Assembly: GCF_004010195.1 (NCBI RefSeq)
Contig: NC_057757.1
Span: forward strand, 1,359,524 to 1,423,523
DNA: 64,000 nucleotides
Reading direction: 5' to 3'
From: Chiloscyllium plagiosum
Taxonomy: Eukaryota
The notes below the pieces were generated by a model, which was given only the letters and a program-made list of their open reading frames with translations, was not told where the DNA came from and did not search any database. Position 1 is the stretch's first letter. Each line of letters starts with the position of its first letter. Positions 37,246 to 64,000 of this stretch are shown one piece after another. Position numbers and translations under genes: made by a program.

Positions 37246-38562
37246 CGAGTTTTGTAAAGTCATCATTCATTGACAGTAAATGTTTTTGCTCAAAAGACAA
37301 GCAAGCCCTGTTTAGTCCCAGAACAAATGCAACCTTTTCATTTATTCTTACTTCACATCTCCTGTTCTTCAATAGGCGTTATTGCTAACAACTGGCTGAA
37401 GGCTTTACAAAATGTATGCTCCTACATTCAGCATTGACAGGATGCTGTGTTATGTTGGGTGTTGGGGAAGGTGTACTGGTGCTAAGGATGTGTATGTTAT
37501 CCTTGTAGCTCCAGTGGCAGTGGATCAGGCAGGAATGATATCAAAGTGCCAATATGTTTATGATTATGATATTCTATTTACAATGAGGTGTCACCCGTAC
37601 CATCTGTGTGCCTTCAGAAGCTTTTCTTTCCCACCATGTTAACTGTAAAGGCTATACCTGATTGATAGTGTTGGACCAAGTGAACAACTAGATTCAAAAA
37701 TGCTGCTAGATACAGAAATCCCAGAAGAATGCAGCAGCATTGCGCATGTCTGTCCAGGTGAGTGCAAGATAACGCAGGAGCAGGGCTGTAGATGAGTAGG
37801 GCGTAGGGGGTGAGCAGCGTAGAATTGTGTGAGATAAACTACGGACTTCCTGCACATTCTGAGGGGACCGTCTGTTACAAGTCTTCATGTAGAGACCCTT
37901 CAGTTGTGACTGGAACCTGCTGCTAGTCCTGAACCTGCTGATTCATTCATTCTGCATCAATTTCTCTGCACATTCACTGTGCAGTGGCCATAACAATGAG
38001 GACACCATTGGTGACAGTTCCAATGAACCAGGGTGAGGAATATCAGAATCAAACCAGCTTCCTCGTTGCAGCTGGCAGTTACAGCACACGCAAAGCACAA
38101 TATACCACAGAGCTTGATACAATGGTGCATGTAGGACATTGACACGGAGGGCCATTGAATGGCTGTACATGGACCTATGACATTATTCCAATACACACAG
38201 CACAAGCTACATCACAAACACAACACCTTGTCCTCCCTCTCCACCCTTACTTCTTAAGAAAGGCAGCTTTGCAGAAATGAGCATGTTGGCAAATACTGAC
38301 TGTTCAAGGTGAAAGGAAACCAGCTCCATTCCCATGTGCAGCCTTGGAGATCTTGGATTGTCTCTGTGACTAGTGGCCCACAGGTGAGACCTTTATGGAT
38401 ACCTGTGATTAATTCCGCTTCACAGAGATGACTGTTGTCAATTTGTAATGATCAATGACATGGTCAAGATTGCTAATGGCCAGAATTTGTACTCAGCATA
38501 GTTGAACACTGCACACTGTTCACCTTTTTATGCTCATGGGAAGTGGACAACATTGGCTAGAC

Positions 38563-39907: not shown

Positions 39908-39986
39908 ATGGACAAGACCCCATGCAAACTGCAAAAGGCATTAGTCTTATTCTGTTTGCTTTCTCCTGCAATTTCAGTGACAACAG
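39908..39986 (+). CDS. First coding exon (signal peptide) of a mucin-like gene: MDKTPCKLQKALVLFCLLSPAISVTT+G
   Basis: Strong Kozak context CAAAATGG; basic n-region, hydrophobic core ALVLFCLL, small-residue c-region; consensus phase-1 donor CAG|GTGAGT compatible with the downstream phase-1 exons. Confidence 0.75.
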
Positions 39987-40139: not shown

Positions 40140-42340
40140 CTAGACCAATGAGTCTCATACCAGTGGTCGGAAAACTATTCTGAATTAGTCTCATTTTGAG
40201 AGGCAAGGTTTGATCAGGGATAGTCAGCATGACTTTGTCAGAAGGAGGTCATACCTCATAAATCTGGTTAAGTTTTTGAAAAGGTGACAAAGTAATGCAG
40301 TGGTGTATAAGCATAGAAACTTAGAAAACAGATATAGATTTCAGCAAGGTTTTTAACAAGGTCTCACATGGGAGCTGATAATGAAGGTAAAAGCACATGG
40401 GATCCAGGGTAACTTGGCAATTTGGATCAAAATTGGCTAAGGTGACAGAGGGTGATGGTGGAAAGCTGTTTGTGTGACTGGAGACCGATGTCCAGTTGTG
40501 TACTGCAGGGATCAATGCTGGGTCCCTTATTGCTCATGATATATATAAATGTTATAAGTGAGAATGTGAGGGTGAGGAGAGTGGCATGAATAATTTTGTG
40601 GGTGATGTAAAGATCGGCTCGGTGGTTCACAGCGAGGAATAAAGTCTTAGTTATGTTAGGATTTAGATGAATTGGTCACCTGGGAATAAGTTATGAACTA
40701 GAATCTAATCAAGGGATTCTGGGTGGTTTATATATAGAATAACAGATATGGAGCATGAGTTACTGACTGGAATCTAATCGAGTGATTCAGGATGGTTTAT
40801 ATCTCGATTAACAGATTCCCTGGATGGAGTTACAGCCTGAAATCTAATTGACAGTTTTGGGATTGTTTATATAAAGAACATGAGATGCCTTGGAGGGATT
40901 TACAGACAGGAAGTTGATCAGGGGCGAGGTGGTTTCGGGATTGTCTGTGTAGAATAACAGATACCGGATGTAAGTTTTAACTGGAATTGAATTGAGGGGT
41001 TCGGGGTTGTTTATGTCTAGAATAACAGATACCTGGGAGGGAGTTACCAAGTAGAATCTAATCGAGAGGTTCAGGGTGGTTTATATATAGAATAACAGAT
41101 TGCTGGGAATGAGTTACAGACTGGAATCTAATCGAGGGGTTCGGGGTGGTCTATAATGTTATAGGGAGAAGCTGAATAGGCTGAGCTGTTTTCCCTGGAG
41201 TGTTGAAGGCTGAGAGATGAGCTTATAAAGATTTATAAAGTCATGAGGGGCATGGATGGGGTAAATAGACAAGGTATTTTCCCTGGGGTGTGGGAGTCCA
41301 GACCTAGAGGGCATAGGTTTAGGTTGAGAGGGGAAAGATATAAAAGGGACCTAACGGGCAACTTTTCACGCAGAGAGTGGTGCGTATGTGGAGTGAGCTG
41401 CCGGAGGAGGTGGTGGAGGCTGGTACAAATATTGCATTTAAAAGGCATCTGGATGGGTATATGAATAGGAAGGATATGGGTTTGGTGCTGGCAAATGGAA
41501 CTGGGTTAGGTTAGGATATCTGGTTGGCATGGACATGTTGGACCGAAGGGTCTGTTTTCATGCTGTACATCTCTGTGACTCCATGATCAGTGACAGATGG
41601 AATTTAATCCTGATAAGTTTTGGGTGATGCACTTTGGAAGAAGTAACAAGGAAGTACTCAATGAATGGTCAGACACTAGGAAAAACGGAGGGACGTGAGG
41701 ATCTTAGGGTGCTTTTCCACAAATTCCTGAAGGTTTTAGGGCAGGTTAATAAGGTAGAAAAGAAAGCATCCAGGACACTTGTCTGTATCAGTCAAAGCAC
41801 AGATTATATAAACAAGGAGGTCATGTTGGGGCTTTGGTGAGACCACAGCTGCAGAACTGTGTGCAGTGTGGTCACCAGACAAAAGAAAGATGTGATTGCA
41901 CTGGAGGTAATGCAGAGGAGATTTACCAGAACATTACCTAGGAAGGAGCATTTTAGCTATGAAGAGAGGTTGGATAAACTCAGGTTGGTTTCTTCAGAGC
42001 AGAGAAGGCTGAAGGGAATCTGATAGAGGTGTGTAAGATTGTGAGGGACATGGACAGGGAGAACAGGAAGCAGCTGTTCCCCTTAGTTGGAGGGTCAATA
42101 ACAATGGGGCGCATTTCTAATGTGAAAGGCAGGAGGTTTCAAGAGGAGTCGAGGAAAAGTGTTTTCAACCAGAGGACGTGGAGATCTGGAATGTACTGCA
42201 TCACAACATTTAAAAGGTATTTGGATGAACACGTGAATTATCATAACATTCAAAGTTATAGGCCAAGTGCTAGAAAGTGGGATCAGTGTAGTTTAGCTTA
42301 GTTTTGGCAGGATCTCTTCTGTACAATATGATTCTGTGAT
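40140..42340 (+). mobile_element. Old CR1 LINE interrupted by a satellite and a younger CR1 3' end (~41155-41587)
   Basis: DFSKVFNKVSH, QGSMLGPLL, QMEFNPDKF, RPRGHRFRL. Confidence 0.75.
40680..41152. repeat. ~70-bp tandem repeat, ~7 degenerate copies
   Basis: GAATCTAATC-like anchors at 40701, 40770, 40840, 40910, 40984, 41054 and 41124; unit ~TATATAGAATAACAGATACCTGGGAGTGAGTTACAGACTGGAATCTAATCGAGGGGTTCGGGGTGGTT. Confidence 0.85.
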
Positions 42341-46259: not shown

Positions 46260-46542
46260 AGTTGAAGGGAGTTTCTTGAAATGGAGAAAGGCAATTCAAT
46301 CATAGGACAAGCTAGAGAATTCCTAGAAACATGGAACTCATCCGTGGACTCTATCAACAAGCACATAGATCCAATATACTGGCACTACAACCAGAACCAG
46401 CAACCAGAAGCAGCAGAAATGAAACCAAATAAATTCCAAAAGGCACAGTACAGCAGCACTTCACAGGAGGGTTGAGGATGTCACCTGGACATGGGACGAA
46501 ACCTCTGCAAATTAACTTCCCAGCTCAACGAATATACCCACA
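46260..46542 (+). mobile_element. Penelope-like element 3' end (second family)
   Basis: IIGQAREFLETWNSS..SINKHID translation; degenerate TGAGGA..GAAAC core near 46473-46502. Confidence 0.7.
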
Positions 46543-46653
46543 ATGACGACAACTAATGTGATATTTAAGAGGAATATCGACAACAGCACAGTATCCACAT
46601 TAACCAGCAGTCCAGGGTTTCAATCACATCTGCAGAGACTTCAACATCAGGAC
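46540..46653 (+). pseudogene. Diverged, dead paralog of the mucin cassette exon
   Basis: ACAATGACGACAACT...TCAACATCAGGAC|ATAAATGGGAGACATTGTGGCCTAT aligns with the exon and donor of the array. Donor GT lost, acceptor replaced by Penelope, internal frameshift. Confidence 0.6.
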
Positions 46654-46696
46654 ATAAATGGGAGACATTGTGGCCTATTGGCTCAATTTTTAATTA

Positions 46697-47003
46697 GATT
46701 TAGATTTGATTCCCTGCAGTGTGGAAACAAGCCCTTCAGCCCAACAAGTCCACACTAACTCTCTGAAGAGCAATTCACCCAGACCCATTTCCCTCTGACT
46801 AATGTACCTAACACTATGGGCAATTTAGCATGGCCAATTCACCTAACCTGCACAATCTTTGGACTGTGGGAGAAAACCAGAGCATCCGGAGGAGACCCAC
46901 GCTGACACGGGGAGAATGTGCAAACAGACAGTTGCCTGAGGCTGGAATTGAACCTGGGACTCTGGTGCTATTAGGCAGCAGTGCGAACTACTGAGCCACC
47001 GTG
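46697..47003 (-). mobile_element. HE1-type V-SINE
   Basis: Same structure as 22695-23027. Confidence 0.85.
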
Positions 47004-47895
47004 TTGACGGGGGAAGGAAAGAAATTGAAAATTTTGTTCTTGGAGGGCAGTTCTGGATCTGGCATCCGTGGGAAAACTTGTAGATTCCATTAGTACTGCA
47101 GGGAGAGTGGAATAGAAAATGTGCTTTCACACCTTTATGACTCTAGTTACCTTTAATGGGCTTGCCAAAGTGCCTAACCCAGAGTGACAGTTAGCATTTC
47201 GTTTCCAGAGAAAGTGCACCGGACATGAGCGTTTTAATGTGAAGTAGTTCGGATTGCTCCAGAACGTAACAGCATAAGTGACAGCAGGAGGATGAGGCCA
47301 TTCAGCCCATCTAGCCTGGTCTATCAAAAATGAAATTGTGTCTTAACTTTCTTCAGCTCTACCTCCCTGGACTATTAATACACACTTGATGTTAATAATA
47401 TATAGAAATATTTTGATTATAGACTTGAACATACTCAGTGACTGATCCTTCTACACTCAGATGCATGGTGTGCACAAAAGATGAATCATTTTCTGAGTAA
47501 AAACATTTCTCCTCGAATTTCTCTTGAATTTGTATAGAATGATCCATTGTCCTTGACCCCCCTCCAGTAGAATTATCTTTCCAGTGTTGATCGAATGGAA
47601 AGTATGTATGTCAGAATGTACAAATTGGGCTTTTCTGAAAGATGACATGTGGCACTGTAGTCCTCCCTCAGCCAATATGATGCAGCCTGGATTTATGCAA
47701 GCTCAGTCTGGATTTGGGGTTTCTGTCTGGAGGAGTGTAAGAGATGCACAATTCCCTTTCCATTTGTAACAAATGGAAATTGACATCAAACCATAGCACT
47801 GAACGGAATGTGATTCTGATGTGGAAAGAGAATGAAATGGATGAAGGAAATGTATTCAGTATAAAATCTGACACCATGAAAATTATCTTAAACAG

Positions 47896-48009
47896 AAACA
47901 AAGACAACAACTGAGGACTCGACAATGGAGTCTACTTCAGTGGACACAACAGTGGTAACCATCAGTTCAAATCCTACCCTGACATCCACTGATGTTTCAA
48001 CATCAGGAG
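47896..48009 (+). pseudogene. Ser/Thr-rich cassette exon copy 1, donor mutated: ETKTTTEDSTMESTSVDTTVVTISSNPTLTSTDVSTSG
   Basis: Branch CTGAC 47868-72, acceptor AAACAG|, open frame, but the donor reads G|GAAAGT instead of GTAAGT. Confidence 0.6.
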
Positions 48010-49224
48010 GAAAGTGGCAGACATTGTGACCTATCATGAGAACATATCCAACTTTAATTATTCTGTACAACTGTGCACGATCACTTCACCTGTAATTTGT
48101 CTTGCCCTATTTTAATAGAGCATAACTGATTTATTGGAAACAATTAAACTTGCAGAGGGCAGGGGTTTCTGAGGTATTGCCAATGTTTAACAGAGTGAGC
48201 AATGGGAGCTAATTTATGAATATTATGATTACTTAGAAAACAAGGAAGTAATAGCTAGAATGGATACTTTCTCTTCTTGATGATGTTTAGGGGGTGGAGG
48301 TTAGCCCAGGACACTATCAATGGTTCAACTGCTTTTGGACAAATAACACAGTTAAATCCAATTCTCCCACAAGTGACTATGGAAGCATTGACAAAGTAAT
48401 GTCACTTTGGAGAGTTTATATTTCAGCACTCCCTCTGCATTGCTGACCCCCAGCCTGGATCTGCTGGAAGTAACTCTGGGGTCGACTTAATGACCTTTCG
48501 ACTGAGTATTTTGCAAGTGCCTGTCCTGAAAAGAGTGACAGTTACCATTTTATTCCCAGAGAAGGTGCACCGGACGTGTGCGTTTTAGTGTAAAGCAGTC
48601 AGGATTGCTCCAGAACATCAGAGCATACGTGACAGGAGGAGGACAAGGCCATTCAACCTGTCTAGCCTGTTCTATCAAAAATAAAATTGTGTCTTTCCTT
48701 TCTTCAATGCTAGGTCCCTGGACTATTGCTGCAGCACTTGATGTTATTAATATATAGAAATATTTTGATCACAATCTTGAACACACTCAGTGACTGAGCC
48801 TTCTGCACTTAATTGCATTCATCATCTTCTGACTAAAACATTTCTCCTAGTCTTTGTCCTGAATTTGTCGAGAATGTTCCCTTCTCCTTGACCCCACTCC
48901 AGTGGAATTATCTTTCCAATGTTTACCTATTTGAAAGTATGAATGTTAGAATGTACAAATTGGACTTTTCTGAAAGATGAACTGTAGTCCTCCATCAGCC
49001 AACCTATGGTGCAGCCTGGATTTGTACAAACTCAGTCTGGGTCTTGGGTTTCAGCCTGGAGGAGTGTAAGAGTTGCACAATTCCCTTTCCATTTGTGACA
49101 GATGGAAATTGACATCAACCCATAGCATTGAATGGAATATGATTCTGATGTGGAAACAGGATGAAATGAATGAAGAAAATGCATTCAATATAAAACCTGA
49201 CCCCATGAAAATTATCTTAAACAG

Positions 49225-49338
49225 ACACTAAGACAACAACTGGGGACTCGACAATGGAGTCTACATCAGTGGACACAACAGTGACAACCATCGGCTCAAA
49301 TCCTACCCTGACACCCACTGATCCGTCAACATCAGGAG
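49225..49338 (+). CDS. Cassette exon 2: DTKTTTGDSTMESTSVDTTVTTIGSNPTLTPTDPSTSG
   Basis: 114 nt, CAG| ... G|GTAAAT, phase 1-1, open. Confidence 0.8.
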
Positions 49339-49512
49339 GTAAATGGCAGACATCATGACCTATAGTTAGAACATATCCAACTGTAATTATTCTCTGAGAG
49401 ATTGTATACGATGACGTCACCTGCAATTTGTCTTACCCTAATTTGAATTCAGAGCATTACTAATTTATTGTAAACAATAAAACTTCCAGTGTGTGGAGTT
49501 TCTGAGGTATCG

Positions 49513-49677
49513 ACGTTTCGGGCATAAGCCCTTCTTCAGGAATCAGGGTCCTGAAGAAGGGCTTATGCCCGAAACGTCGATTCTCCTGTTCCTTTGATGC
49601 TGCCTGACCTGCTGCACTTTTCTAGCAACACATTTTTAAGCTCTGATTTCCAGCATCTGCAGTCCTCACTTTCTCCT
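49513..49677. mobile_element. Penelope-derived palindromic insertion with hammerhead-like cores and 16-bp TSD
   Basis: TSD AGTTTCTGAGGTATCG at 49497-49512 and 49678-49693; perfect 33-bp inverted arms 49509-49541 and 49549-49581. Confidence 0.85.
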
Positions 49678-50223
49678 AGTTTCTGAGGTATCGTCGATGT
49701 TTAACAAAGCGAGCGATAGGAGCCAATTTATGAACATCAAGATTACTTCAAAAACAAAGAACAAAGAGATAGAATGGATACACTTTCTTCTTGATGACAT
49801 TTAGGGAATGAAGATTAGCCCAGGACAATATCAACAGTTCAACTGCTTTTGAACCAATAACACAGTTAGATCCAATCCTCCCACAAGAGACTATGGAAGC
49901 AATCACAAAGTAATGTCACTTTGGAGAGCCAATATTGCAGCACTCCCTCTGCATTGCTGATCTCCAGCCTGGATCTGCTGACTGTAACTCTTGGGTTGAG
50001 TTAATGAGCTTCTGACTGAGTTTTATGCGCTCACCTCACAGCACAGAGAGACTCCCAATGTAATAAGCTTGCCAATGAGCCTGTCCTGAACAGTGAGACA
50101 GATACCATTTATTTCCAGGGCAAGTGCACCGGACATGAGTGTTGCAATGTACATCAGTCAGGATTGCTACAGAACATAAGAGCATAAGTGACAGCAGGAG
50201 GATGAGGCTATTCAGCTTATCTA

Positions 50224-51388
50224 TGAAGTGGTTGTAGATGAAAAGTATTCTGCCTGGAGGTCAGTGGTGAGTGATGTCCTGGAGGGCTCTGCTCTTGGGC
50301 CTCTGCTCTTTGTAGTTTTTAGAAATGACTTTATGAGGAAGTTGAGGGGTGGGTTTATAAATTTGCTGATGACACAAAGGTTGGAGGCGCCGTTGATAGT
50401 ATCGAAATCTGCTGCAGGCTGCAGCGCAACATAGACAGGATGCAGAGGTGGGCTGAGAAATGACAAATGGAGTTCAACCTGGATAAATGCAAAGTGATGC
50501 ATTTTGGAAGGTCGAACTTGAATGCAGAATATACGATTAAAGACAGGATTCTTGGCAGTGTGGAGGAACAGCGGAATCTTGGTGTTCAAGTGCATAGATC
50601 CCTCAAACTTGCCACCCAAGTGGATATGGTTGTCAAGAAAGCATGTGATGTTTTGGCTTTCAGTAACAGGGGGATTGAGTTTAAGAACTGCGAGGTTTTG
50701 CTGCAGCTCTGCAAAACCCTAGTGAGATCGCACTTGAAATATTGTGTCCAGTTCTAATCGCCCTATTATACGAAAGATGTGGAGACTTTGGAGAGGGCGC
50801 AAAGAAGGTTTACCAGGATGCTGCCTGGACTGGAGTTGAAGTCACCTAATACAACAACCCTGCTATATCTGCATTTTTCCAAAATCTGCCCGCCTATGAT
50901 TAATTATCCTCCCTACTGCTATTAGTGGATCTGTTGAAGAGAGGTTGACTAAGCTCAGACTTTTGTCTCTGAAGAGAAGGAGGAAGAAAGATGACCTGAT
51001 CAAGGTGTACAAGGTAATGAGAGGCATGGACAATAGCACTAAACAGAGTGTGATTCTGGTGTGGAAACAGGTTGAAATGAATGAAGCCAGAGACTTTTCT
51101 CCAGGTCAGGATTCACTGCCACGAGGGGTCATAGTTTTAAGGTGTTGGGAGGGAGGTCGAGAGGAGACGTCAGAGGTAGTTTCTTTATGCAGAGAGTTGT
51201 GAATGCATGGAATGTGTTGTCAGTGTTGGTGGTGGAAGTAGAGTCATTAGGGACATTGAAGCGATTGCTGAACATGAACATGGGTGCGTTGGTTAGGTTA
51301 TTTCATTTTAAATTAGGATTAATCCTCGGCACAACATCATGGGCCAAAGGACCTGTTCTGTGCTGTACTTTTCTATGTTCTATGTTCC
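50224..51388 (+). mobile_element. CR1 LINE 3' part inserted into the intron before exon copy 3
   Basis: MEFNLDKCKVMHFG..IKDRILGSVEEQRNLG; (TTCTATG) tail; same subfamily as 30594-32535. Confidence 0.9.
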
Positions 51389-51746
51389 ATATTCTCATGT
51401 TCCGTTGTCCTTAACCCCACTCCAGTGGAATTATCTTTCCAATGTTGATCCAGTGGAAGTCAGAATATGCAAATTGGGCTTTTTTGAAAGATGACATGTG
51501 GCACTGCAGTCCTCCCTCAGCCAACCTACAGTGCAGCCTGGATTTGTGCAAGCTCAGTCTGGGTCTGGGGTTTCAGTCTGGAGGAGTGTAAGAGATGCAG
51601 AATTCCACTTCTGTTTGTAACAAATGGAAATTGACATCAAACCATAGCACTAAACAGAGTGTGATTCTGGTGTGGAAACAGGTTGAAATGAATGAAGAAA
51701 ATATATTCAGTATAAAATCTGACACCATGTAAATTATCTTAAACAG

Positions 51747-51860
51747 AAACAAAGGCAACAACTGAGGACTTGACAATGGAGTCTACATCAGTAGACACTA
51801 CAGTGGCAAACATCAGCTCAAATCCTACCCTGACATCTATAGATCCATCAACATCAGGAG
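51747..51860 (+). CDS. Cassette exon 3: ETKATTEDLTMESTSVDTTVANISSNPTLTSIDPSTSG
   Basis: 114 nt, CAG| ... G|GTAAAT, open; has gained an N-I-S sequon. Confidence 0.8.
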
Positions 51861-53145
51861 GTAAATAGCAGATATTGTGACCTATAGTTAGAACATATCC
51901 AGCTGGAATCATTCTTTGAGATATAGGTACACGATCACTTCACGTGCAATTTACTTTGCCCTACTTTGATTCGAGAGTATAACTGATTTATTGTAAACAG
52001 TTAAACTCCTAGAGGGAGGAGTTTCTTTGATATGGCCAATGTTTAATAGAGTGAGCAATGGGAGCTAATTAATGAACATCAAGATTACATGGAAAAAAAG
52101 GAGGAAAAGAGCTAGAATGGATACTCTCTCTTCTTGATGATGTTTAGGGGATGAAGATTAGCCCAGAACAATATCAGTGGACTACCTGCTTTTGGACGAA
52201 TAACACAGTTAGATCCAATTGTCCCACAAGATACTATGGAAGCAATCACAAAGTAATGTCACTTTGGAGAGTTGATATTGCAGCACTCTCTTTCCATTGC
52301 TGATCTCCAGCCTGGATCTGCTGGCAGTAACTCTGGAGTTGAGTTAATGAGCTTCTGACTGAGTTTTATGCACTCACCCCACAGCACAGAGAGAGTCCCA
52401 ATGTAATAAGCTGCCAATGTGTCTGTCCTGAACAGTGAGACAGATACCATTTTACTTCTAGAGAAAGTGCACGGGACATGTGCGTTTTAGTGTAAAGCAG
52501 TAAAGATTGCTACACAACGTCAGAGCATAGTGACAGCAGGAGGATGAGGCCATTCAGCTCATCTAGCCTGGTCCATCAAACATAGAATTGTGTCTTACCG
52601 TTCTTCAACGCTGGTTCCCTGGACTATTGCTGCAGCACTTTATGTTATTAATATATAGAAATATTCTGATCACAGTCTTGAACACACTCAGTGACTGAGC
52701 CTTCTGCACTCAGTTGCATTGTGTGCACTAAAGATTAATATGACTAAAAACATTTCTCCTTGTCTTTGTGCTGAGTTTGTATAGAATTATCCCTTGTCCT
52801 AGACCACACTCCAGTGGAATTATCTTTCCAATGTTGATTAATTGGAAAGTATGTATGTCAGAATGTGCAAATTGGGCTTTTCAGAATGATGACATGTGGC
52901 ACTGTGGTCCTCCTCAGCCAACCTAATATGCAGCCTGGATTTGTGCAAGCTCAGTCTGGGTCTGGGGTTTTAGTCTGGAGGAGTGTAGGAGATGCAGAAT
53001 GCCCTATCAATTTGTAACAAATGGAAATTGACATCAAACCATAGCACTGAACAGAACTTGATTCTGATATGGAAACAGGATGAAATGAATGAAGAAAATG
53101 TATATTCAGTATAAAACCTGACCCCATGAAAATTATCTTAAACAG

Positions 53146-53259
53146 AAACAAAGACAACAACTGAGGAATTGACAATGGAGTCTACTTCAATGGACACATC
53201 AGTGGTAACCATCAGCTCAAATCCTACCCTGACATCCACTGATATGTCAACACCAGGAG
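53146..53259 (+). CDS. Cassette exon 4: ETKTTTEELTMESTSMDTSVVTISSNPTLTSTDMSTPG
   Basis: 114 nt, CAG| ... G|GTAGAT (weaker donor), open. Confidence 0.72.
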
Positions 53260-54530
53260 GTAGATGGCAGACATTGTGACCTATAGTTAGAGCATATCCA
53301 ACTGTAATTATTCTCTGAGAGATTGGTACACGACCACTTCACCTGCAATTTGTCTTGCCCTAATTTTAATAGAGCATAACTGATTTATTGGAAACAATTA
53401 AACTTCCAGTGGGAGGAGTTTCTGAAGTATAGCCAATTTTAATAGAGCGAGTGATGGGACCCAATTTATGAACATCAAGATAACTTAGAAAACAAGGAGG
53501 AAAGAGCTAGACTGGATACTCTCTCTTCTTGATGATGTTTCAGGGATAAAGATTAGCACAGGATAGTATCAACAGTTCAACTGCTTTTGGACCAATAACA
53601 CAGTTAGATCCAATCCTCACACAAGAGACCATGGAAGCAATCACAAAGTAATGTCATTTTTGGAGAGTCGATATTCTAGGACTCCCTTTCCATTGCTGAC
53701 CTCCAGCCTAGATCTGCTGGCAGTAACTCTGGGGTTGATATGCTGCTGTTCTGACTGAGTATTATTTGCTCACCACAGAGTACAGAGAGATCCCCAATGT
53801 AATAAGCTGCCAATATACCTGTCCAGAACAGAGTGACAGTTATCATTTCATTTCTAAAGTAAGTACACTGAACATGTGTGTTTTGGCGTAAAGCAGTCAG
53901 GATTGCTACAGAACGTAGGAGCATAAGTGACAGCAGGAGGATGAGGCCATTCAGCAAGCAAAACTAAAATTGTGTCTTAAATTTCTTCATCGCTATTTCC
54001 CAGGAGTATTGATGCAGCACGTGATCTTATTAATATGTAGAAATATTTTGATCACATTCTTGAACGCACTGTGACTGAGCCTTCTGCACTCAACTGCATT
54101 GTGTGCACAAAAGATTCATCACCTTCTGACTAAAAACATTTCTCCTTGTCTTTGTCCTGAATTTGTTGAGAATGCTTCCTTGTCCTTGACCCCACTCCAG
54201 TGGAATTATCTTTCCAATGTTGATCCAGGGGAAAGTTTGAATGTTAGAATGTACAAATTGGGCTTTTCTGAAAGATGACATGTGGCACTGTGGTCCTCCC
54301 TTAGCCAACCTACTGTGTAGCCTAGATTTGTGCAAGCTCACTCTGGGTCTGGGTTTTCTGTCTGGAGGAGTGTAAAAGATGCATAATTCCCTTTCCATTT
54401 GTAACAAATGGAAATTGACATCAAACCATAGAACTGAACAGAATGTGATTCTGATGTGGAAACAGGATGAAATGGATGAAAAAAATGTATTCAGTATAAA
54501 ATCTGACACCATGAAAATTATCTTAAACAG

Positions 54531-54638
54531 AAACAAAGATAATAACTGAGACAATGGAGTCTACATCAGCAGACACAACAGTGACCACCATCGGCTCAAA
54601 TCCTACCCTGACATCCACTGATCTGTCAACATCAGGAA
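54531..54638 (+). CDS. Cassette exon 5: ETKIITETMESTSADTTVTTIGSNPTLTSTDLSTSG
   Basis: 108 nt (6-nt in-frame deletion), CAG| ... A|GTAAAT, open. Confidence 0.7.
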
Positions 54639-55911
54639 GTAAATGGCAGCCATTATGACCTATCGTTAGAAAAAGTTTTCTCTGCGAGATTGGTACACGA
54701 TCACTTCACCTGCAATTTGTCTCGCCCTGATTTTAATAGAGAGCAAAACTTCTTATATAAACAATTAAACTTCCAGAGGGAGGAGTTTCTGAGGTATCGC
54801 CAATGTTTAACAGAGCAAGCGATGGGAGCCAATTTATGAACATGATGATTACTCAGAAAACAAGGAGGGGAGAAATAGACTGGATACACTTTCTTATTGA
54901 TGATGTTTAGGGGATCAAAATCAACCCAGGACACTATCAATTCTCCAACTGCTTTTGGAGCAATAACACAGTTAGATCCAATCCTCCCACAAGAGACTTT
55001 GAAGCAATCACAAAATAATGTCACTTTGGAGAGTCAATATTGCAGCACTCCCTCTGCATTGCTGACCTTCAGCCTGGATCCTGGCAGTAACTCTGAAGTC
55101 GATTTGATGAGCTTCTGACTGAGTATTATGTACTCACCGTGGAGCACAGAGAGAGTCCCAATGTGATCAGCTTGCCAAGAAGCCTGTCCTGAAAGAGTTA
55201 CAGTTACCATTTCCTTTCCAGAAAAAGTGCACTGGATACGTGCGTTTTAGTGTAAAGCAGTCAGGATTGCGGCATGACCGTAAAAGCATAAGTAACAGCA
55301 GGAAGATGAGACCATTTAGCCCATCTAGTCTTTTCCATCAGCATTTAAATTGTTTCTTACATTTTTCAATGCTTGTTTCCTGGACTCTTGCTGCAAAACA
55401 TGATGTTATTAACCTATAGAAAGTTTTAATCATGCTCTTGAACACACTCAGTGACTGAGCCTTCTGCACTTAGTTGCATTGTGTGCACTAAAGACTCATC
55501 AATTTCTGACTAAAAATCATTTCTCCTCATCTTTGTCCTGAATTTGTCGAGAAAGTTCCATTCTCCTTGACCCCACCCCAGTGAAATTATCTTTCCAGTG
55601 TTGATCGAGTGGAAAGTATGAATGTTAGAATGTGGAAATTGGGCTTTTCTGAAAGATGACATGTGGCACTGTAGTCCTCCCTCAGCCATTTTACTGTGCA
55701 GCTTGGATTTGTGCAAGCTCCGTCTGGGTCTGGGGTTTCACTCTGAAGGAGTGTAAAAGATGCACAATTCCCTTTCCATTTGTAACAAATGGAAATTGAC
55801 ATTAAACCATAACATAGAACGGAATGTGATTCTGATGTGGAAACAGGATGAAATGGATGAAGAAAATGTATTCAGTATAAAATCTGACATCATGAAAATT
55901 ATCTTAAACAG

Positions 55912-56025
55912 AAACAAAAACAACAACTGTGGACATGACAATGGAATCAACATCAGTGGACACAACAGTGACAAACATTGTCTCAAATCCTACCCTGACA
56001 TCCACTGATCCGTCAACATCAGGAG
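55912..56025 (+). CDS. Cassette exon 6: ETKTTTVDMTMESTSVDTTVTNIVSNPTLTSTDPSTSG
   Basis: 114 nt, CAG| ... G|GTAAAT, open. Confidence 0.8.
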
Positions 56026-57224
56026 GTAAATGGCAGACATTGTGACCTTTAGTTAGAGCATATCCAACTATAACCCTTCTCTGAGAGATTGGTTAATGAT
56101 CACTTCACCTGCAATTTGCCTTGCCATAATTTTAATAGAGAGCATGACTGATTTATTGTATACAATTAAACTTCTACAGGGAGGAGTCTCTGAGTATAGT
56201 CAATTTTTAATAGAGTAAGCAATGGGAGCCAATTTATGAACATCAAGATTAGTTATAAAACAAGGAGGAAAGAGCTAGAATGGATACTCTCTCTTCTTGA
56301 TGGTGTTTTAGAGATAATGTTTAGCACAGGATATTATCAATGGTTCAACTGCTTTTGGACCAATAACACAGTTAGATCTAATCTTCCCACAAAAGACTAT
56401 GGAAGCAATCACAAAATAATGTCACTTTGGAGTGTCGATATTGCAGCATTCCCTCTGCACAGCTGACCTCCAGCCTGGATCAGCTGGCAGTAACTCTGGC
56501 GCTGAGTTAATGAGCTTCTGACTGAGTTTTATGCGCTATCCTCACAGCACAGAGAGAGTCCTAATGTAATATGCTTGCCAATGAGCCTGTCCTGAACAGT
56601 GAGACAGATAGCAATTTATTTCCAGAGGAAGTGCATCGGACATGTGCATTTTAGCATAAAGCAGTCAGGATTGCTACAAAACAGAACTGCATAAGTGACA
56701 GCAGGAGGATGAGGCTATTCAGCCAATCAATCATATTCTAGCAAAAATACAACTGTGTCTTAAATTCTTCATCGTTATTTCCCAGGAGTATTGATGCAGG
56801 ACCTGACTGAGCCTTCTGCACTCAGTTGCATTGTGTGCACAAAAGATTCATCATCTTCTGATTAAAAACATTTCTCCTTGTCTTTATTCTGAATTTTTGA
56901 TAATGTTCCCTTGTCCTTAACCCTTCTCCAGTGGAATTATCTTTCCAGTGTTGATCTATTTGAAAGTATGACATGCGGCACTGTAGTCCTCCCTCAGCCG
57001 AACTACCATGCATCTTGGATTTGTGCAAGCTCAGTCTGGGTCTGGGGTTTTCTGTCTGTAGGAATGTAAAAGATGCACAAGTCCCTTTCTATTTGTAACA
57101 AATGGAAATTGACATCAAACCATAACATAGAACAGAATGTGATTCTGATGTGGAAACAGGATGAAATGGATGAAGAAAATGTATTCAGTATCAAACCCGA
57201 CATCATGAAAATTATCTTAAACAG

Positions 57225-57338
57225 ACACAAAGACAACAACTGAGGAATTGACAATGGAGTCAACTTCAGTGGACACAACAGTGACAACCATTGGCTCAAA
57301 TCCTACCCTGACATCCACTGACCCATCAACATCAGGAG
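57225..57338 (+). CDS. Cassette exon 7: DTKTTTEELTMESTSVDTTVTTIGSNPTLTSTDPSTSG
   Basis: 114 nt, CAG| ... G|GTAAAT, open; 20 of 38 residues are Ser/Thr. Confidence 0.8.
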
Positions 57339-57734
57339 GTAAATGGCAGTCATTGTGACCTGTCGTTAGAACATATCCAACTGTAATTATTGTCTGAGAG
57401 ATTGGTCATGATCACTTCATTTGCAATTTTTCTTGCCTGAATTTTAACAGAGCATAAGTAATTTATTGCAAACAATTAAATCTCCAACAGAACGAGTTTC
57501 AGAAGTATAGCCAATGTTTAATACAATGAGCGATGGGAGCCACTGTATGAACATCAAGATTTTGTGGAAAACAAGGGGAAATAGCGAGAATAGATACTCT
57601 CTCTTCTTGATGATATTTCCGGGATGAAGATTAGCACAAAATACAATCAATGGTTTAACTGCTTTTGGGCCAATAACACAGTTAGGTGCAATCCTTCCAC
57701 AAGAGACTATGGATGCAATCACAAAGTAATGTCA

Positions 57735-57851
57735 TGATTTGTTGATGCAGGTGTTGGACTGGGGTGTACAAAGATAAAAATCACACAACACCAGGTTATA
57801 GTCTATATTGTCCAGGTTATAGGACTATAACCTGGTGTTGTGTGATTTTTA
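57735..57851. mobile_element. 117-bp hairpin insertion with 14-bp TSD
   Basis: TSD ACAAAGTAATGTCA at 57721-57734 and 57852-57865; 29-bp inverted arms 57775-57803 and 57823-57851. Confidence 0.85.
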
Positions 57852-58659
57852 ACAAAGTAATGTCACTTTGGAGAGTCGATATTGCAGCACTCCCTCTGCA
57901 CTGGGCCCCTTCAGCCTGGATCTGCTGACAGTAACTCTGGGGTTGTGTTCATGAGCTTCTGACTGAGTTTTGTGCGCTCACCTCACAGCACAGGGAGAGT
58001 CCCAGTGTAATAAGCTTGCCAATGAGCCTTTCCTGAACATTGAGATAGATACCATTTTACTTCCAGACCAAGTATACTGGAGATGTGCGTTTTAGTGTAA
58101 AGCAGTCAGGATTGCTACATGACCGTAAGAGCATAAGTGACAGTAAGAGGATGAGGCCTTCAGCCCATTTAGCCTCTTCCAGCAGAATTAAAATTGTGCC
58201 TTACCTTTTTTCAATGCTCGTTCCCTGGACTCTTGCTGCAGCAATTGATGCGATTAACATATAGAAATATTTTGATCATATTCTTGAACACACTCAGTGA
58301 CTGAGCCTTCTGCACTCAGTTGCATTGTGCGCACTAAAGACTCATCATTTTCAGACTAAAATACATTTCTCCTTGTTGTTGTCCTGAATTTATCGAGAAC
58401 GTGCTGTTCTCCTCGACCTCACTCCAGTGGAATTATCTTTCCAGTGTTGATCCAGTGGAAAGTATGAAAGAATGTTAGACCCGGTCTAGGTCAGAGGAGT
58501 GTAGGAGATGCACAACTTCCTTTCCATTTGTAACAAATGGAAATTGACATCAAACCGTAACATTGAACAGAATGTCATTCTGATGTGGAAACAGGATGAA
58601 ATGATTGAAAACAGTGCATTCAGTATCAAATCTTACACCATGAAATTTATCTTAAACAG

Positions 58660-58758
58660 AAACAAAGACAACTGAGACAATGGAGTCTACATCAGTGGAC
58701 ACAACAGTGACAACCATTGGCTCAAATCCTACCCTGACACCCACTGATCCGTCAGGAG
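58660..58758 (+). CDS. Cassette exon 8: ETKTTETMESTSVDTTVTTIGSNPTLTPTDPSG
   Basis: 99 nt; three separate deletions (3+6+6 nt), all in frame; CAG| ... G|GTAAAT. Confidence 0.78.
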
Positions 58759-59492
58759 GTAAATGACAGACATTGTGACTTATCGTTAGAACATATCCAA
58801 TTGTAATTTGTCTCTGAGAGACTGGTACACGACCACTTCACCTGCAATTTGCCTTGCACTAATTTTAATTCAGTGCATGACAAATTTATTGTAAACAATT
58901 CAATGTCCAGTGGGACGAGTTTCTGAAGTATAGCCAATGTTTAACAAAGCAAGTGATGTGAGCCAATTTATGAACATCAAGATTACTTAGAAAACAAGGG
59001 AGAAATATGTGGAATTGATACTGTCTCTTCTTGATGGTATTTTGGAGATGAAGATTAGCCAAGGATACAATCAATGGTTCAACAGCTTCTGAAGCAATAA
59101 CACAGTTAGATCCAATTCTCCAACAAGTGACTATGGAAGCAATCACAAAGTAATGTCACTTTGGAGTGTCGATATTGCAGCACTCCCTCTGCAGTGCTGA
59201 CCTCCAGCCTGGATCTGCTGGCAGTAACTCTGGGGTTGAGGTAATGAGCTTCTGACTGTGTTTTATGCACTCACCCCACAGCACAGAGATAGTCCCAATG
59301 TAATAAGCTGCCAATGTGCCTGTCCTGAACAGTGAGACAGATACCATTTTACTTCCAGAGAAAGTGCAGCCTGGATTACTGCAAACTCAATCTGGGTTTG
59401 GGGTTTCTGTCTGAAAGAGTGTAAAAGATGCACAAGTCCCTTTCCATTTGTAACAGTATAAAATCTGACACCATGAAAATTATCTTGAACAG

Positions 59493-59606
59493 AAACAAAG
59501 ACAACAACTGAGGACTCGACAATGGAGTCTACTTCAGTGGACACAACAGTGGTAACCATCAGCTCAAAACCTACCCTGACATCCACTGATCTATCAACAT
59601 CAGGAG
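59493..59606 (+). CDS. Cassette exon 9: ETKTTTEDSTMESTSVDTTVVTISSKPTLTSTDLSTSG
   Basis: 114 nt, CAG| ... G|GTAAGT (consensus donor), open. Confidence 0.82.
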
Positions 59607-61609
59607 GTAAGTGGCAGACATTGTGACCTATCATGAGAACATATCCAACTTTAATTATTCTGTCCAACTGTGCACGATCACTTCACATGCAATTTGTCTT
59701 CCCCTACTTTTAAAAGAGAGCATAACTGATTTACTGTTAAAAATTAAACTTCCAGATGTATGAATTTCCAAAGAAAAGCCAATGTTTAATAGAGAGAGCG
59801 ATGGGAGCTAATTTATGAACATCAAGATAACTTAGAAACCAAGGAGGCAATAGCTAGAATGGATACTCTCTGTGCTTGATGATGTTTAGGGGAATGAAGA
59901 TCAGCCTAGAATACTATCAATGCTCCACTGCTTTAAGAGCAATAACATGTTTAGATCGAATCCTCCCACAAGAGACTACGGAAGCAATCACAAAGTAATG
60001 TCACTTTGGAGAGTCAATATTGTAGCACTACCACTGCATTGCTGTCCTCCAACATGGATCTGCTGGAAGTAACTCTGGGGTTGATTTGATGAGTTTCTGC
60101 CTGAGATTTTTGCGCTCACCATGGAGCACAGAGAGAGTCCCAATATAATAAGCTGCTGAAGTGCCTGTCCTGAGCAGGGTGACAGTTACCATTTTATTCC
60201 CAGACAAAATGCACCGGACACGTGTGTTTTAGTGTGAAGTAGTTCGGATTGCTCAAGAACGTAAGGGCATAAGTGACAGCAGGAGGTTGAGGCCATTCAG
60301 CTCATCCAGCCTGTTGTATCAAAAATGAAATTGTGCCTTCCCTTTTTTTCAAGGCTAGTTCCCTGGACTCTTGCTGCAACACTTGATGTTATTAACATAT
60401 AGAAATATTTTGATCAAATTCTTGAACACACTCAGTTACTGAGCCTTCTGCACTCAGTTGCATTGTGTGCACTGAAGACTTTTCGTTTTCATACCAAAAA
60501 AAATTTCTCCGCCTCTTTGCCGTGAATTTGTACAGAATGGTCCCTTGTCCTTCACTCCAGTGGAATTATCTTTCCAGTGTTGATCGAGTGGAAAGTATAT
60601 CTGTCAGAATGTACGAATTGGGCTTTTCTGAAAGATGATGTGGCAATGTTGTCCTCCCTTAGCCAACCTACCGTGCAGCCTGGATTTGTGGCAAGCTCAG
60701 TGTGGGTCTGGGGTTTCCGTCTGGAGGAGTGTAAGAGATGTTCAATTCCCTTTCCGTTTGTAACAAACTTCAATATCGGGAGGTGAATGGCAGACATTGT
60801 GACCTATCGTTAGAACATATCGAACGTATATCCAACTTTTAGCTAGAATGGATACTCTCTCTTATTGATGAAGTAGCATAGCACAGGATACAATCAATGG
60901 TTCAACTGCTTTTAGGACAATAACACAGTTAGATGCAATCCTCCCCGACATCCACTGATATGTCAACATCAGAAGGTAGATGGCAGACGTTGTGACCTAT
61001 AGTTAGAACATATCCAACTGTAATTTTTCTCTGAGAGATTGGTTAATGATCACTTTATATGCAATTTGTCTTGCCCTACTTTTAATATTAGGAGGTAGGT
61101 GGCAGACATTGTGACCTATCATGAGAACATATCCAACTTTAATTATTCTGTACAACTGTACACGATCACTTCACCTGCAATTTGTCTTGCCCTACTTTTA
61201 ATAGAGAGCATAACTGATTTAATGGAAACAATGAAACTTCCACAGGGAGGAGTTTCTAAGGTATCGCCAGTGTTAAACAGAGCAAGCGATGGGAGCCAAT
61301 TTATGAACATCATGTTTTCTTGGAAAACAAGGAAGAATGAGAGAGAATAGATCCACTTTCTTCTTGATGATGTTTAGGGGATGAATATCAGCCCAGGACA
61401 CCATCAACGGTTCAATTGCTTTTGGGCCAATAATACAGTTAGATTCAATCCTCCCACAAGAGACCATGGATGGAATCACAAAGTAATATCACTTTGGAGA
61501 GTCGATATTGCAGCACTCCATCTGCACTGGGCCCCTTCAGCCTGGACCTGCTGACAGTAACCCTGGGGTTGGGTTCATGAGCTTCTGACTGAGTTTTGTG
61601 CGCTCACCT

Positions 61610-62109
61610 NNNNNNNNNNNNNNNNNNNNNNNNNNNNNNNNNNNNNNNNNNNNNNNNNNNNNNNNNNNNNNNNNNNNNNNNNNNNNNNNNNNNNNNNNNN
61701 NNNNNNNNNNNNNNNNNNNNNNNNNNNNNNNNNNNNNNNNNNNNNNNNNNNNNNNNNNNNNNNNNNNNNNNNNNNNNNNNNNNNNNNNNNNNNNNNNNNN
61801 NNNNNNNNNNNNNNNNNNNNNNNNNNNNNNNNNNNNNNNNNNNNNNNNNNNNNNNNNNNNNNNNNNNNNNNNNNNNNNNNNNNNNNNNNNNNNNNNNNNN
61901 NNNNNNNNNNNNNNNNNNNNNNNNNNNNNNNNNNNNNNNNNNNNNNNNNNNNNNNNNNNNNNNNNNNNNNNNNNNNNNNNNNNNNNNNNNNNNNNNNNNN
62001 NNNNNNNNNNNNNNNNNNNNNNNNNNNNNNNNNNNNNNNNNNNNNNNNNNNNNNNNNNNNNNNNNNNNNNNNNNNNNNNNNNNNNNNNNNNNNNNNNNNN
62101 NNNNNNNNN
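61610..62109. other. Assembly gap (500 N)
   Basis: Run of exactly 500 N inside the tandem array. Confidence 1.
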
Positions 62110-62522
62110 TGCTGTGCTGTTCCAGCAATCAAGTTTCAACTCCAATTCTCCAACAGGTGACTATGGAAGCAATCACAAAGTAATGTCACTTTGGAGTGTC
62201 AATATTGCAGCACTCCCTCTGCAGTGCTGACCTCCAGCCTGGATCAGCTGGCAATAACTCTGGGGTTGAGTTAATGAGCTTCTGAATGAGTTTTATGCGC
62301 TCACCCCACAGCACAGAGATCATCCCAATGTAATCATCTGCCAATGTGCCAGTCCTGAACAGTGAGACAGATACCATTTTACTTCCAGAGAAAGTGCAGC
62401 CTGGGTTAATGCAAACTCAGTCTGGGTTTTGGGTTTCTGTCTGAAGGAGTGTAAAAGATGCACAAGTCCCTTTCCATTTGTTACAGTATAAAATCTGACA
62501 CCATGAAAATTATCTTAAACAG

Positions 62523-62636
62523 AAACAAAGACAACAACTGAAGACTCGACAATGGAGTCTACTTCAGTGGACACAACAGTGGGAACCATCAGCTCAAAAC
62601 CTACCCTGACATCCACTGATCTATCAACATCAGGAG
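62523..62636 (+). CDS. Cassette exon 10: ETKTTTEDSTMESTSVDTTVGTISSKPTLTSTDLSTSG
   Basis: 114 nt, CAG| ... G|GTAAGT, open. Confidence 0.82.
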
Positions 62637-63918
62637 GTAAGTGGCAGACATTGTGACCTATCATGAGAACATATCCAACTTTAATTATTCTGTACAACTG
62701 TACACGATCACTTCACCTGAAATTTGTCTTGCCCTACTTTTAATAGAGAGCATAACTTATTTACTGTAAAAAATTAAACTTCCAGAGATAATAATTTCTA
62801 AAGAAAAGCCAATGTTTAATAGAGCGAGCGATGGGAGCTAATTTATGAACATCAAGATAACTTTGAGACCAAGGAGGCAATAGCTAGAGTGGATACTCTC
62901 TGTGCTTGATGATGTTTGGGGGAATGAAGATCAGCCCAGAATACTATCAATGCTCCACTGCTTTAAGAGCAATAACACATTTACATCCAAACCTCCCACA
63001 AGAGACCAGGGAAGCAATCACAAAGTAATGTCACTTTGGAGAGTCAATATTGTAGCACTACCTCTGCATTGCTGTCCTCCAACCTGGATCTGCTGGAAGT
63101 AACTCTGGGGTTGATTTGATGAGTTTCTGCCTGAGATTTTTGCGCTCACCATGGAGCTCAGAGAGAGTCCCAATATAATAAGCTGCTAAAGTGCCTGTCC
63201 TGAACAGGGTGACAGTTACCATTTTATTCCGAGACAAAGTGCACCGGACACGTGTGTTTTAGTGTGAAGTAGTTCGGATTGCTCCAGAACATAAGGGCAT
63301 AAGTGACAGCAGGAGGATCAGGCCATTCAGCTCATCTAGCCTGTTGTATCAAAAATGAAATTGTGCCTTCCCTTTTTTTTAAGGCTAGTTCCCTGGACTC
63401 TTGCTGCAACACTTGATGTTATTAACATATAGAAATATTTTGATCAAATTCTTGAACACACTCAGTTACTGAGCCTTCTGCACTCAGTTGCATTGTGCCC
63501 ACTGAGGACTCTTCGTTTTCATAGCAAAAAAACATTTCTCCGCCTCTTTGCCGTGAATTTGTACAGAATGGTCCCTTGTCCTTCACTCCAGTGGAATTAT
63601 CTTTCCAGTGTTGATCGAGTGGAAAGTATATCTGTCAGAATGTACGAATTGGGCTTTTCTGAAAGATGACGTGGCAATGTTGTCCTCCCTTAGCCAACCT
63701 ACCGTGCAGCCTGGATTTGGGCAAGCTCAGTCTGGGTCTGGGGTTTCCGTCTGGAGGAGTGTAAGAGATGTTCAATTCCCTTTCCGTTTGTAACAAATGG
63801 AAATTGACATCAAACCATAGCATTGAACAGAATGTCATTCTGATGTGGAAACAGGATGAAATGAATGAAAAAATGTATTCAGTATAAAACCTGACACCAT
63901 GAAATTTATCTTAAACAG

Positions 63919-64000
63919 AAACAAAGACAACTGAGACAATGGTGTCTACATCAGTGGACACAACAGTGACAACTATCGGCTCAAATCCTACCCTGACATC
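63919..64000 (+). CDS. Cassette exon 11 (cut by window end): ETKTTETMVSTSVDTTVTTIGSNPTLT...
   Basis: CAG| acceptor, open, shares the 3+6 nt deletions of copy 8. Confidence 0.72.

Follow-up and report, generated by a model that had tools for sequence, protein, structure and literature searches.

Among described mucins, chicken Muc13 comes closest to the locus analysed here. In the sections of the report drawn on (Lang, Hansson and Samuelsson 2006, PMC1552070), it is a SEA-type membrane mucin whose PTS region comprises at least 12 near-identical exons of one repeat each, with an assembly gap; the authors suggested that splicing might control its length, and they regarded the layout as possibly ancestral. 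The mechanism, one repeat per exon with splicing as the proposed length control, is thus already published and is not new here. Mammalian MUC3A, MUC3B, MUC12 and MUC17 combine, in the excerpted parts of PMC13643018 and PMC9578598, a signal peptide, a PTS domain, EGF-SEA-EGF, a transmembrane segment and a tail, and their PTS occupies a single large exon in which the repeats are sub-exonic. In Schistosoma mansoni, the cited portion of PMC2576457 describes SmPoMuc as a parasite multigene family built from ~1-kb genomic repeats, each a small 27-nt exon with flanking intron and >93% identical, in which repeat number and type vary, altering predicted glycosylation, and the transcript repeat number exceeds the genomic one. 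Multi-exon mucin domains are also described, in extracts of PMC5789918, PMC7177656 and PMC3549977, for Xenopus MucXS/Otogl and FIM-C.1 and for chicken MUC2, which are secreted gel-forming or trefoil mucins; within these extracts, FIM-C.1 is described as polymorphic owing to alternative splicing (PMC7177656), and for chicken MUC2 a single splice variant of the PTS, in frame, was obtained, with little alternative splicing found (PMC3549977).

Here we analysed a 64,000-nt stretch of Chiloscyllium plagiosum contig NC_057757.1 (the window), which contains a tandem array of short, likely coding cassettes. Like chicken Muc13, as far as the quoted sections describe it, the array carries one near-identical repeat per exon, includes a gap, and belongs with a SEA-type membrane mucin in its shark orthologues; it differs in repeat length (~38 rather than 20 residues), in its placement on a MUC3/17-like branch rather than at the Muc13/HEG locus, and in being from a shark rather than a bird. 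The shark orthologues share the domain order of the mammalian MUC3/12/17 proteins, whereas the mammalian single large PTS exon is replaced here by one repeat per exon, and for this reason we class the gene as MUC17-like rather than as a mammalian-type member. With SmPoMuc the array shares a small exon that sits, together with flanking intron, in each genomic repeat. The same repeat occurs in the RefSeq ‘mucin-17-like’ entries of Rhincodon typus (XP_048475975.1) and Stegostoma tigrinum (XP_048380272.2, XP_059498641.1) and in chiPu_0019990; in these automatic models the number of repeats ranges from 0 to about 4 and a signal peptide is absent, in contrast to the predicted signal exon and at least 11 cassettes of the window. 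No papers on the exon array of this shark gene were found in the open-access literature.

Layout and coding constraint of the repeat exons

Searching the window with a 21-nt acceptor motif returned 11 matches on the plus strand and none on the minus strand, delimiting ten complete cassettes and a cut eleventh (Table 1). Eight of the ten complete cassettes share one length, the other two being shorter, and all ten are multiples of three in length, of phase 1-1, with a stop-free Ser/Thr frame; leaving out any combination of them would preserve the frame, as the first-pass annotation had stated. Its list of donors matched exactly when all copies were re-read, and the N-I-S sequon it had reported lies in c3 only (1 of 10). 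Introns between cassettes are 0.7–2.9 kb long, and the unit introns are 79–86% identical between copies (blastn self-map and alignment); c9 and c10 are closer, with 95% identity in introns and 96% over the 1656 aligned nt of the whole unit. That further copies lie beyond the sequence examined was also borne out. The three donor-only fragments could be deletions, or assembly debris beside the gap. These fragments, the decayed homologue c0, the 500-N gap and the signal-peptide exon were missing from the earlier list.

Table 1 Features of the window (a slash marks the exon end in donors)
Feature	Position	Strand	Length	Donor	Remarks	Basis
Frame matching first 13 residues of whale shark mucin-17-like model	37700..37738	+			Short	tblastn P0005
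Predicted first coding exon	39908..39986	+			Signal-peptide-like, 26 residues	Sequence prediction
c0	46560..46660	+		Lost	Decayed cassette homologue, frameshifted	Pairwise alignment to c7; donor-like match at 46645
Tandem array	47182..64000	+	~1.38 kb per unit		Exon+intron units, past window end	blastn self-map
c1	47896..48009	+	114 nt	GA (GAAAGT), dead	Clade with c9 and c10	Motif search
c2	49225..49338	+	114 nt	G/GTAAAT		Motif search
c3	51747..51860	+	114 nt	G/GTAAAT	N-I-S sequon	Motif search
c4	53146..53259	+	114 nt	G/GTAGAT		Motif search
c5	54531..54638	+	108 nt	A/GTAAAT		Motif search
c6	55912..56025	+	114 nt	G/GTAAAT		Motif search
c7	57225..57338	+	114 nt	G/GTAAAT		Motif search
c8	58660..58758	+	99 nt	G/GTAAAT	Short B type, like c11	Motif search; 3′ side of run X1 joint
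c9	59493..59606	+	114 nt	G/GTAAGT	A type; groups with c1 and c10	Motif search
Three donor-only unit fragments	60770..61120	+			No acceptor; donors at 60774, 60967, 61086	Motif search, self-map
Assembly gap	61610..62109	.	500 N		Within array	Sequence
c10	62523..62636	+	114 nt	G/GTAAGT	A type	Motif search
c11	63919..64000	+			B type, cut by window end	Motif search

Every complete cassette encodes 16–21 Ser and Thr among 32–37 residues, and the peptides are 80–92% identical to c7 in a 45-column alignment that includes a few intron-derived residues, so that the cassettes have the Pro/Thr/Ser-rich tandem repeats of SEA-type mucins. The cassette exons are under coding constraint. With all ten copies pooled rather than c2–c7 alone, changes per site amounted to 0.43, 0.41 and 0.70 at codon positions 1, 2 and 3 compared to 0.81 in introns, and dN/dS was 0.57. 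All three exon indels counted by hand were in frame compared to 3 of 22 intron gaps, although two of the three fall within short repeats, in which slippage tends to add or remove multiples of three. The first-pass proposal that the cassettes are coding, O-glycosylated stalk exons is thus likely on the basis of codon-position constraint and in-frame indels, the glycosylation itself being predicted.

Homology to shark mucin-17-like proteins

A profile of the cassettes matched Chiloscyllium punctatum chiPu_0019990 (P0001, GCC21518.1) with E 4.6e-30, the sole match at E ≤ 1e-10 among 4 matches in 1.84 billion representatives; two others, P0002 and P0003, looked unrelated when read. The Cys-rich end of P0001 is 85% identical to the whale shark mucin-17-like protein (P0005, XP_048475975.1), which clusters with zebra shark mucin-17-like isoforms X1 and X2 (XP_048380272.2, XP_059498641.1), and the SEA domain scored above the Pfam cut-off in all three of these models. 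A zebra shark model (P0006) opens with the cassette repeat, matching c1 at 13 of 16 residues, and predicted orthologues chain several repeats. Structure-atlas neighbours were mucin-3A, mucin-12 and mucin-17-like proteins (TM 0.73, 0.66 and 0.55, for a low-confidence model). Pfam showed nothing above cut-off on P0001, a PDB sequence search gave 0 matches, and a search for longer relatives of P0001 residues 143–220 gave 0 matches.

These comparisons make it likely that the gene is an orectolobiform-shark mucin-17-like gene and that the cassettes encode its PTS stalk. EGF-SEA-EGF, the transmembrane segment and the tail are seen in the linked orthologues P0005 and P0006; in C. plagiosum this end would lie beyond the window, so that its link to the array rests on the orthologues. 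The array and the shark mucin-17-like models very likely represent one orthologous locus, which would account for the same repeat sequence and, in the whale shark model, for the same upstream 13 residues: tblastn of P0005 against the window aligned these at 37700 with 11 of 13 identical (E 2e-5 within the window). The short frame marks the same locus and is probably not the true start. An N-terminal signal peptide is predicted instead in a hydrophobic ATG exon, the better of 2 candidates in a simple hydropathy scan of 13–47.9 kb, whose ATG has an A at −3 and a G at +4, and which carries a strong phase-1 donor, CAG/GTGAGT. A 9-nt ‘micro-exon’ (39978–39986) was dropped when this 79-nt exon was found to end at the same donor. 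Farther upstream, the first exon of a divergent minus-strand gene ends near 12882. A position between ACHE and TRIM56/SERPINE1 characterises the MUC3/12/17 group, and this gene might be ACHE; no coding exon for it was recognised by eye among 52 frames of 5400–13300, and Rfam gave 0 matches in 5600–61600.

Splice sites and competing explanations

In CD45 (PTPRC), the O-glycosylated exons 4–6 are symmetric, and the frame survives when they are skipped; these three exons are distinct from one another, do not form a tandem array and are known to be regulated by cell type. As the first-pass precedent for this locus, CD45 holds for the in-frame-skippable symmetric exons, but chicken Muc13 is the closer case. 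Symmetric phase is a precondition for the survival of any exon duplication, and therefore symmetry is not evidence of skipping. We consider it probable that the tandem exon+intron copies form the Ser/Thr-rich PTS stalk of a shark MUC17-like transmembrane mucin, with a ~38-residue repeat per exon, intact copies mostly spliced in series behind the signal-peptide exon, splice sites that drifted, and a stalk length set mainly by copy number. Unequal crossing-over would have grown the array, with only the symmetry of the unit preserving the frame; drift of the splice sites after duplication would have killed some copies (c0, c1); weak copies may be skipped to some extent as a harmless side effect; and stalk length would track mainly genomic copy number.

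Reads bear on a different possibility, that only the young A- and B-type copies at the right end are used, while c1–c7 are largely skipped and decay to pseudo-exons. In run X1, a probable RNA contig set whose RNA status is guessed, depth reached 150–207 on A/B-type contigs compared to an average of 5–17 in bins with c3–c7, c0 and c1 are dead, and the c4 and c5 donors are weakened. However, the high depth may sum several collapsed copies, c2–c7 keep open frames and the acceptor, and run X1 depth was higher in the 5 exon bins holding c3–c7 than in 8 exon-free bins (p 0.003; run X2 showed the reverse), all of which makes such restricted use unlikely. Two raw single-cell poly(A) runs were treated as no test: from ~2/100 of run X6, 2927 reads fell into 7 of the 30 bins, every one of them over mobile-element inserts and none on a cassette, and run X7 gave no reads on the window. 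Among sequencing runs listed as containing the sequence, none was recorded as RNA, which speaks neither for nor against expression.

The first-pass annotation had proposed graded, tuned splice-site strengths, with the length of the stalk and the density of its glycans in a single animal controlled by regulated skipping of cassettes in combination, on the model of CD45. Such tuning is not supported, because the donor differences are no more than ordinary mutation gives. At donor positions −3 to +6 we counted 4 changes compared to 7.3 expected at the intron rate (one genome; low power), fewer than drift would give and no sign of selection maintaining splice-site differences; these are four single changes that follow the unit tree, and GTAAGT is a marker of the c1/c9/c10 clade, not a step in a gradient. 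Donor score, ranked from approximate consensus frequencies that give order only, did not correlate with run X1 depth over c3–c7 (rho −0.11, n=5, a weak test). The loss of the c1 donor was confirmed, and no open in-frame substitute GT or GC was found from −30 to +90. The acceptors, as had been remarked, almost lack a polypyrimidine tract (7–8 pyrimidines per 16 nt), and they form no gradient, 7 of 11 copies being identical and 4 differing by one base. Ahead of 8 of 10 cassettes lies a branch-point-like CTGAC, its A being at −25; the block −32 to −22 as a whole is unconserved (9 changes compared to 8.9 expected), so that it is unproven that the branch point makes up for the weak tract. Conservation of this purine-rich acceptor, 3 changes compared to 17 expected at the intron rate, speaks for tuning and could reflect a regulatory element, but the value is low rather than unique, since 2 of 15 other 20-nt windows in the local upstream intron also have ≤3 variant states.

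Further arguments for tuning are the symmetry of all ten complete cassettes, the splicing-based polymorphism of frog FIM-C.1 and the variable repeat number of SmPoMuc transcripts, so far as the cited parts of PMC7177656 and PMC2576457 go, and the sole exon-end to exon-start joint among the 15 of 288 run X1 joints listed, the rest of which may include skipping joints. Taken literally, this joint (48006–58657, depth 149.5), whose skip length of 10650 matches the distance between an exon end and an exon start, connects c1 to c8 in a six-cassette skip, and its 27-nt side fitted c1, not c9; it occurred 0 times among the run X2 joints listed, which were only partly counted. A simpler reading is that adjacent A-type and B-type copies, like c10 followed by c11, lie outside the sequence examined, and skipping is not shown by it. 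We regard as improbable that a weak purine-rich acceptor is deliberately kept on at least a dozen interchangeable exons whose long-range skipping is regulated by tissue or cell state. Were it so, a single gene would set glycocalyx thickness and glycan pattern through regulated skipping, directly exemplifying the control of length by splicing that was put forward for chicken Muc13 in 2006 (PMC1552070), and the multi-exon stalk of the MUC3/17 branch would already be present in cartilaginous fish.

That the array is a non-coding satellite with an accidental open frame, for which it speaks that the absence of stop codons is not significant by itself (P 0.14), is very improbable: changes are patterned by codon position, exon indels keep the frame, the acceptor is conserved, mucin models of three shark species are homologous to the cassettes, and run X1 contains the exon joint. 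Still harder to credit is a Dscam-like repertoire of mutually exclusive single-repeat variants, also raised at first pass, which the homologous tandem exons with amino-acid differences might suggest, but which is disfavoured by the joining of cassette end to cassette start, by introns of a length that gives no steric exclusion, by the chained repeats of predicted orthologues, and by a lack of docking/selector complementarity, in that intron 1 and the cassette upstream regions shared no excess of complementary words (7 compared to 6.6 at k=9; 2 compared to 1.6 at k=10).

Implications for the shark gene and vertebrate mucins

On the preferred explanation, of a PTS stalk built from exons spliced mostly in series, the window supplies the missing 5′ half of the shark mucin-17-like gene, namely the signal exon and the repeat-exon array, which the truncated automatic models lack. 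The 79–86% identity of the introns together with diagnostic exon bases makes the locus unusually tractable for a long-read test of mucin length by splicing. In the MUC3/17 branch, mammals have a single giant PTS exon, whereas the shark apparently has repeat exons. The idea of 2006, as set out in the quoted sections of PMC1552070, that vertebrate mucins had repeats on separate exons, one to each, from early on is supported, here apparently in the MUC3/17 branch.

Structure and coding constraint of the cassette array

The cassette array is a real feature. A motif search of the whole window found the acceptor motif in 11 copies on the plus strand and in none on the minus strand, and the ten complete cassettes (c1–c10, putative stalk exons of a mucin-17-like gene; 114, 108 or 99 nt) were all of phase 1-1 and stop-free in the Ser/Thr frame. 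Each cassette was embedded in a ~1.38-kb unit, and these units followed one another head to tail between 47182 and the window end. The array was interrupted by a 500-N gap, by three donor-only fragments, by several deletions and by three mobile-element inserts, of which one is LINE-like and the other two are short and flanked by target-site duplications. The donor list, common purine-rich acceptor and lone N-I-S sequon (in c3) were recovered as the first-pass annotation had described them. The inserts date their units and serve as copy-specific markers. The units of c9 (59111–60767) and c10 (62141–63797), which flank the gap on both sides, were 96% identical, and many letters of the c9 intron were without support in any listed contig of sequencing runs X1 or X2; the near-identity may represent a recent duplication, an individual allele or a false duplication of haplotypes.

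Features of the array and its upstream region (window coordinates)
Feature	Position	Strand	Remarks
Likely non-coding first exon of divergent neighbour gene	12882–13050	−	consensus donor CAG|GTAAGT at its end
Predicted signal exon	39908–39986	+	strong donor, good start context, signal-peptide-like sequence
Decayed cassette copy	near 46560–46650		
Mobile-element insert	49513–49678		in a single unit
Mobile-element insert	50217–51400		in a single unit
Mobile-element insert	57735–57851		in a single unit
c11	from 63919, interrupted by window end	+	incomplete cassette

With a tree of the downstream introns as the rate reference (0.81 changes per site, 556 sites), cassette codon positions 1, 2 and 3 (37 sites each) showed 16, 15 and 26 changes, and pooled dN/dS was 0.57 over pairs that are not independent. 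The frame was kept in all three exon indel events (hand count) compared with 3 of 22 intron gaps; two of these exon indels sit in short repeats, which favour multiples of 3. Absence of stop codons across the cassettes was weak on its own (P 0.14).

Splice-site variation among copies

Graded splice-site strength had been read in the first-pass annotation as a possible means of tuning stalk length and glycan density, likened to CD45. At the sequence level this claim is unsupported. In a low-power test on one genome, the nine donor positions carried 4 changes, where the intron rate predicts 7.3 (P(≥4) 0.93, P(≤4) 0.15). One of them, at +5, sets the c1/c9/c10 clade apart, and the other three are private to c1, c4 and c5; judged from sequence, such a pattern is the expected outcome of drift. 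The acceptor carried 3 changes versus 17 expected, indicating that it was uniform rather than graded; against the quieter upstream intron this number was low, not unique, with ≤3 variant states in 2 of 15 other windows. A CTGAC branch-like motif was present in 8 of 10 copies, the surrounding block not being conserved overall. An asymmetric exon, once duplicated, would shift the frame, so that cassette symmetry is uninformative on skipping. No in-frame open donor to replace the dead one of c1 was found in a scan from −30 to +90, and most simply c1 is a pseudo-exon.

RNA-like contigs and cassette use

The region compared with four runs was 46400–61600 (c1–c9), with c10, c11 and the signal exon outside it. 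Neither of the two raw single-cell runs yielded a read on a cassette, a result that carries no weight either way. Contig run X1, guessed to be RNA, behaved in an RNA-like manner: its depth was 5.4–16.5 in five c3–c7 bins versus 0–6.8 in eight exon-free, insert-free bins (p 0.003), and the DNA-like run X2 showed the opposite trend. X1 depth was 207 within c9 versus ~27 in the following intron. Among the 15 joints listed of 288, X1 had one at 48006–58657 with a depth of 149.5, compared with 0 in X2, whose joints were not all counted. Its skip length of 10650 equals the distance from c1 end to c8 start, pointing to an exon-to-exon joint at predicted borders. Taken literally, it would skip six cassettes via the dead donor of c1, a less probable reading that is compatible with the placement of the 27-nt side of the joint on c1, where it makes up the whole X1 depth of that bin (7.96). 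More likely, the joint connects neighbouring A-type (114-nt, c1/c9/c10 clade) and B-type (short; c8, of 99 nt, and c11) copies outside the compared region, as in c10 followed by c11. Two observations favour this reading: the abundant A-type contig is identical to none of c1, c9 and c10, and of the 23 differences listed in the c9 unit, 14 match c10 and 9 fit neither c9 nor c10. X2 contig depth was 45–105 over units 8–9 versus 9–20 on earlier units, where depth is not copy number and the c10 unit outside the compared region explains a factor of two. Further copies beyond those compared are suggested, not counted.

We consider it probable that these are tandem-duplicated exons and that splicing joins the intact copies largely one after another. 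Unequal crossing-over would have duplicated the exon into a mucin stalk with one repeat per exon, splice sites would have drifted and some copies died, and any skipping would be tolerated because it is in frame. Use of the young copies alone is unlikely, and regulated tuning of splicing slightly more so; over c3–c7, donor score did not track X1 depth (rho −0.11, n = 5). A non-coding satellite is very improbable, and mutually exclusive use, for which a docking/selector search found no excess, still more so.

Gene identity, 5′ structure and comparison

A profile of the ten cassettes matched one protein, C. punctatum chiPu_0019990 (E 4.6e-30), again the sole match at E ≤ 1e-10 (four matches in all) among 1.84 billion representatives. 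It contains ~4 cassette-like repeats in a chain and then a Cys-rich end. This end shares 85% identity with P0005, the 'mucin-17-like' protein of whale shark, and P0005 in turn falls into one cluster with P0006 and P0007, two mucin-17-like isoforms of zebra shark. A SEA domain scored above the Pfam cut-off in all three, inspection placed EGF-SEA-EGF-TM-tail in that order in P0005 and P0006, and the cassette repeat opens P0006 (identical to c1 at 13 of 16 residues). The first 13 residues of P0005 matched the window at 37700–37738 in 11 positions, tying it to the same locus. Taken together, these homologies point to a carpet or bamboo shark as the source of the DNA. EGF1 and SEA are missing from the C. 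punctatum protein, and P0007 (zebra shark isoform X2), which has no transmembrane segment, is predicted to be secreted; each deviation may reflect genuine splicing or an error in the model.

Two candidates emerged from a search for ATG exons that are hydrophobic and carry a phase-1 donor, one of them the predicted signal exon at 39908–39986. The predicted gene model leads from the signal exon through a 7.9-kb intron to the array and to SEA and TM exons, presumably beyond the window end. A short ATG frame at 37700–37757, which has a strong phase-1 donor (at 37757) and whose opening 13 residues serve as the start of the whale shark RefSeq model, is possibly an alternative or spurious first exon. 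The first intron holds a 70-bp tandem repeat (40678–41155, ~7 degenerate copies). No coding exon of the minus-strand neighbour gene was recognised in the window; it could be ACHE, if mammalian order holds. A 32-bp GC-rich minisatellite (1–5612, ~175 copies, 95% matches) lies within its first intron, provided that gene is real.

Published work describes at least 12 near-identical exons of one repeat each in chicken Muc13, for which the authors proposed splicing-based length control and an ancestral origin of the layout (PMC1552070), multi-exon mucin domains in Xenopus MucXS (PMC5789918) and in chicken MUC2, the latter showing little splice variation apart from a single in-frame variant (PMC3549977), FIM-C.1 termed polymorphic through splicing (PMC7177656), ~1-kb exon-plus-intron repeats with variable transcripts in SmPoMuc (PMC2576457), and a single PTS exon in mammalian MUC3/12/17 (PMC13643018, PMC9578598). 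The available portion of PMC4948705 makes no mention of the shark mucin-17-like gene, and our literature search found no paper on the shark cassette array. Two points are modestly new: a cartilaginous fish has a MUC17-like gene whose stalk is spread over many exons, and the 5′ structure of the shark mucin-17-like gene is now complete; if the minus-strand neighbour is ACHE, the synteny of the ACHE-MUC3 cluster would reach sharks.
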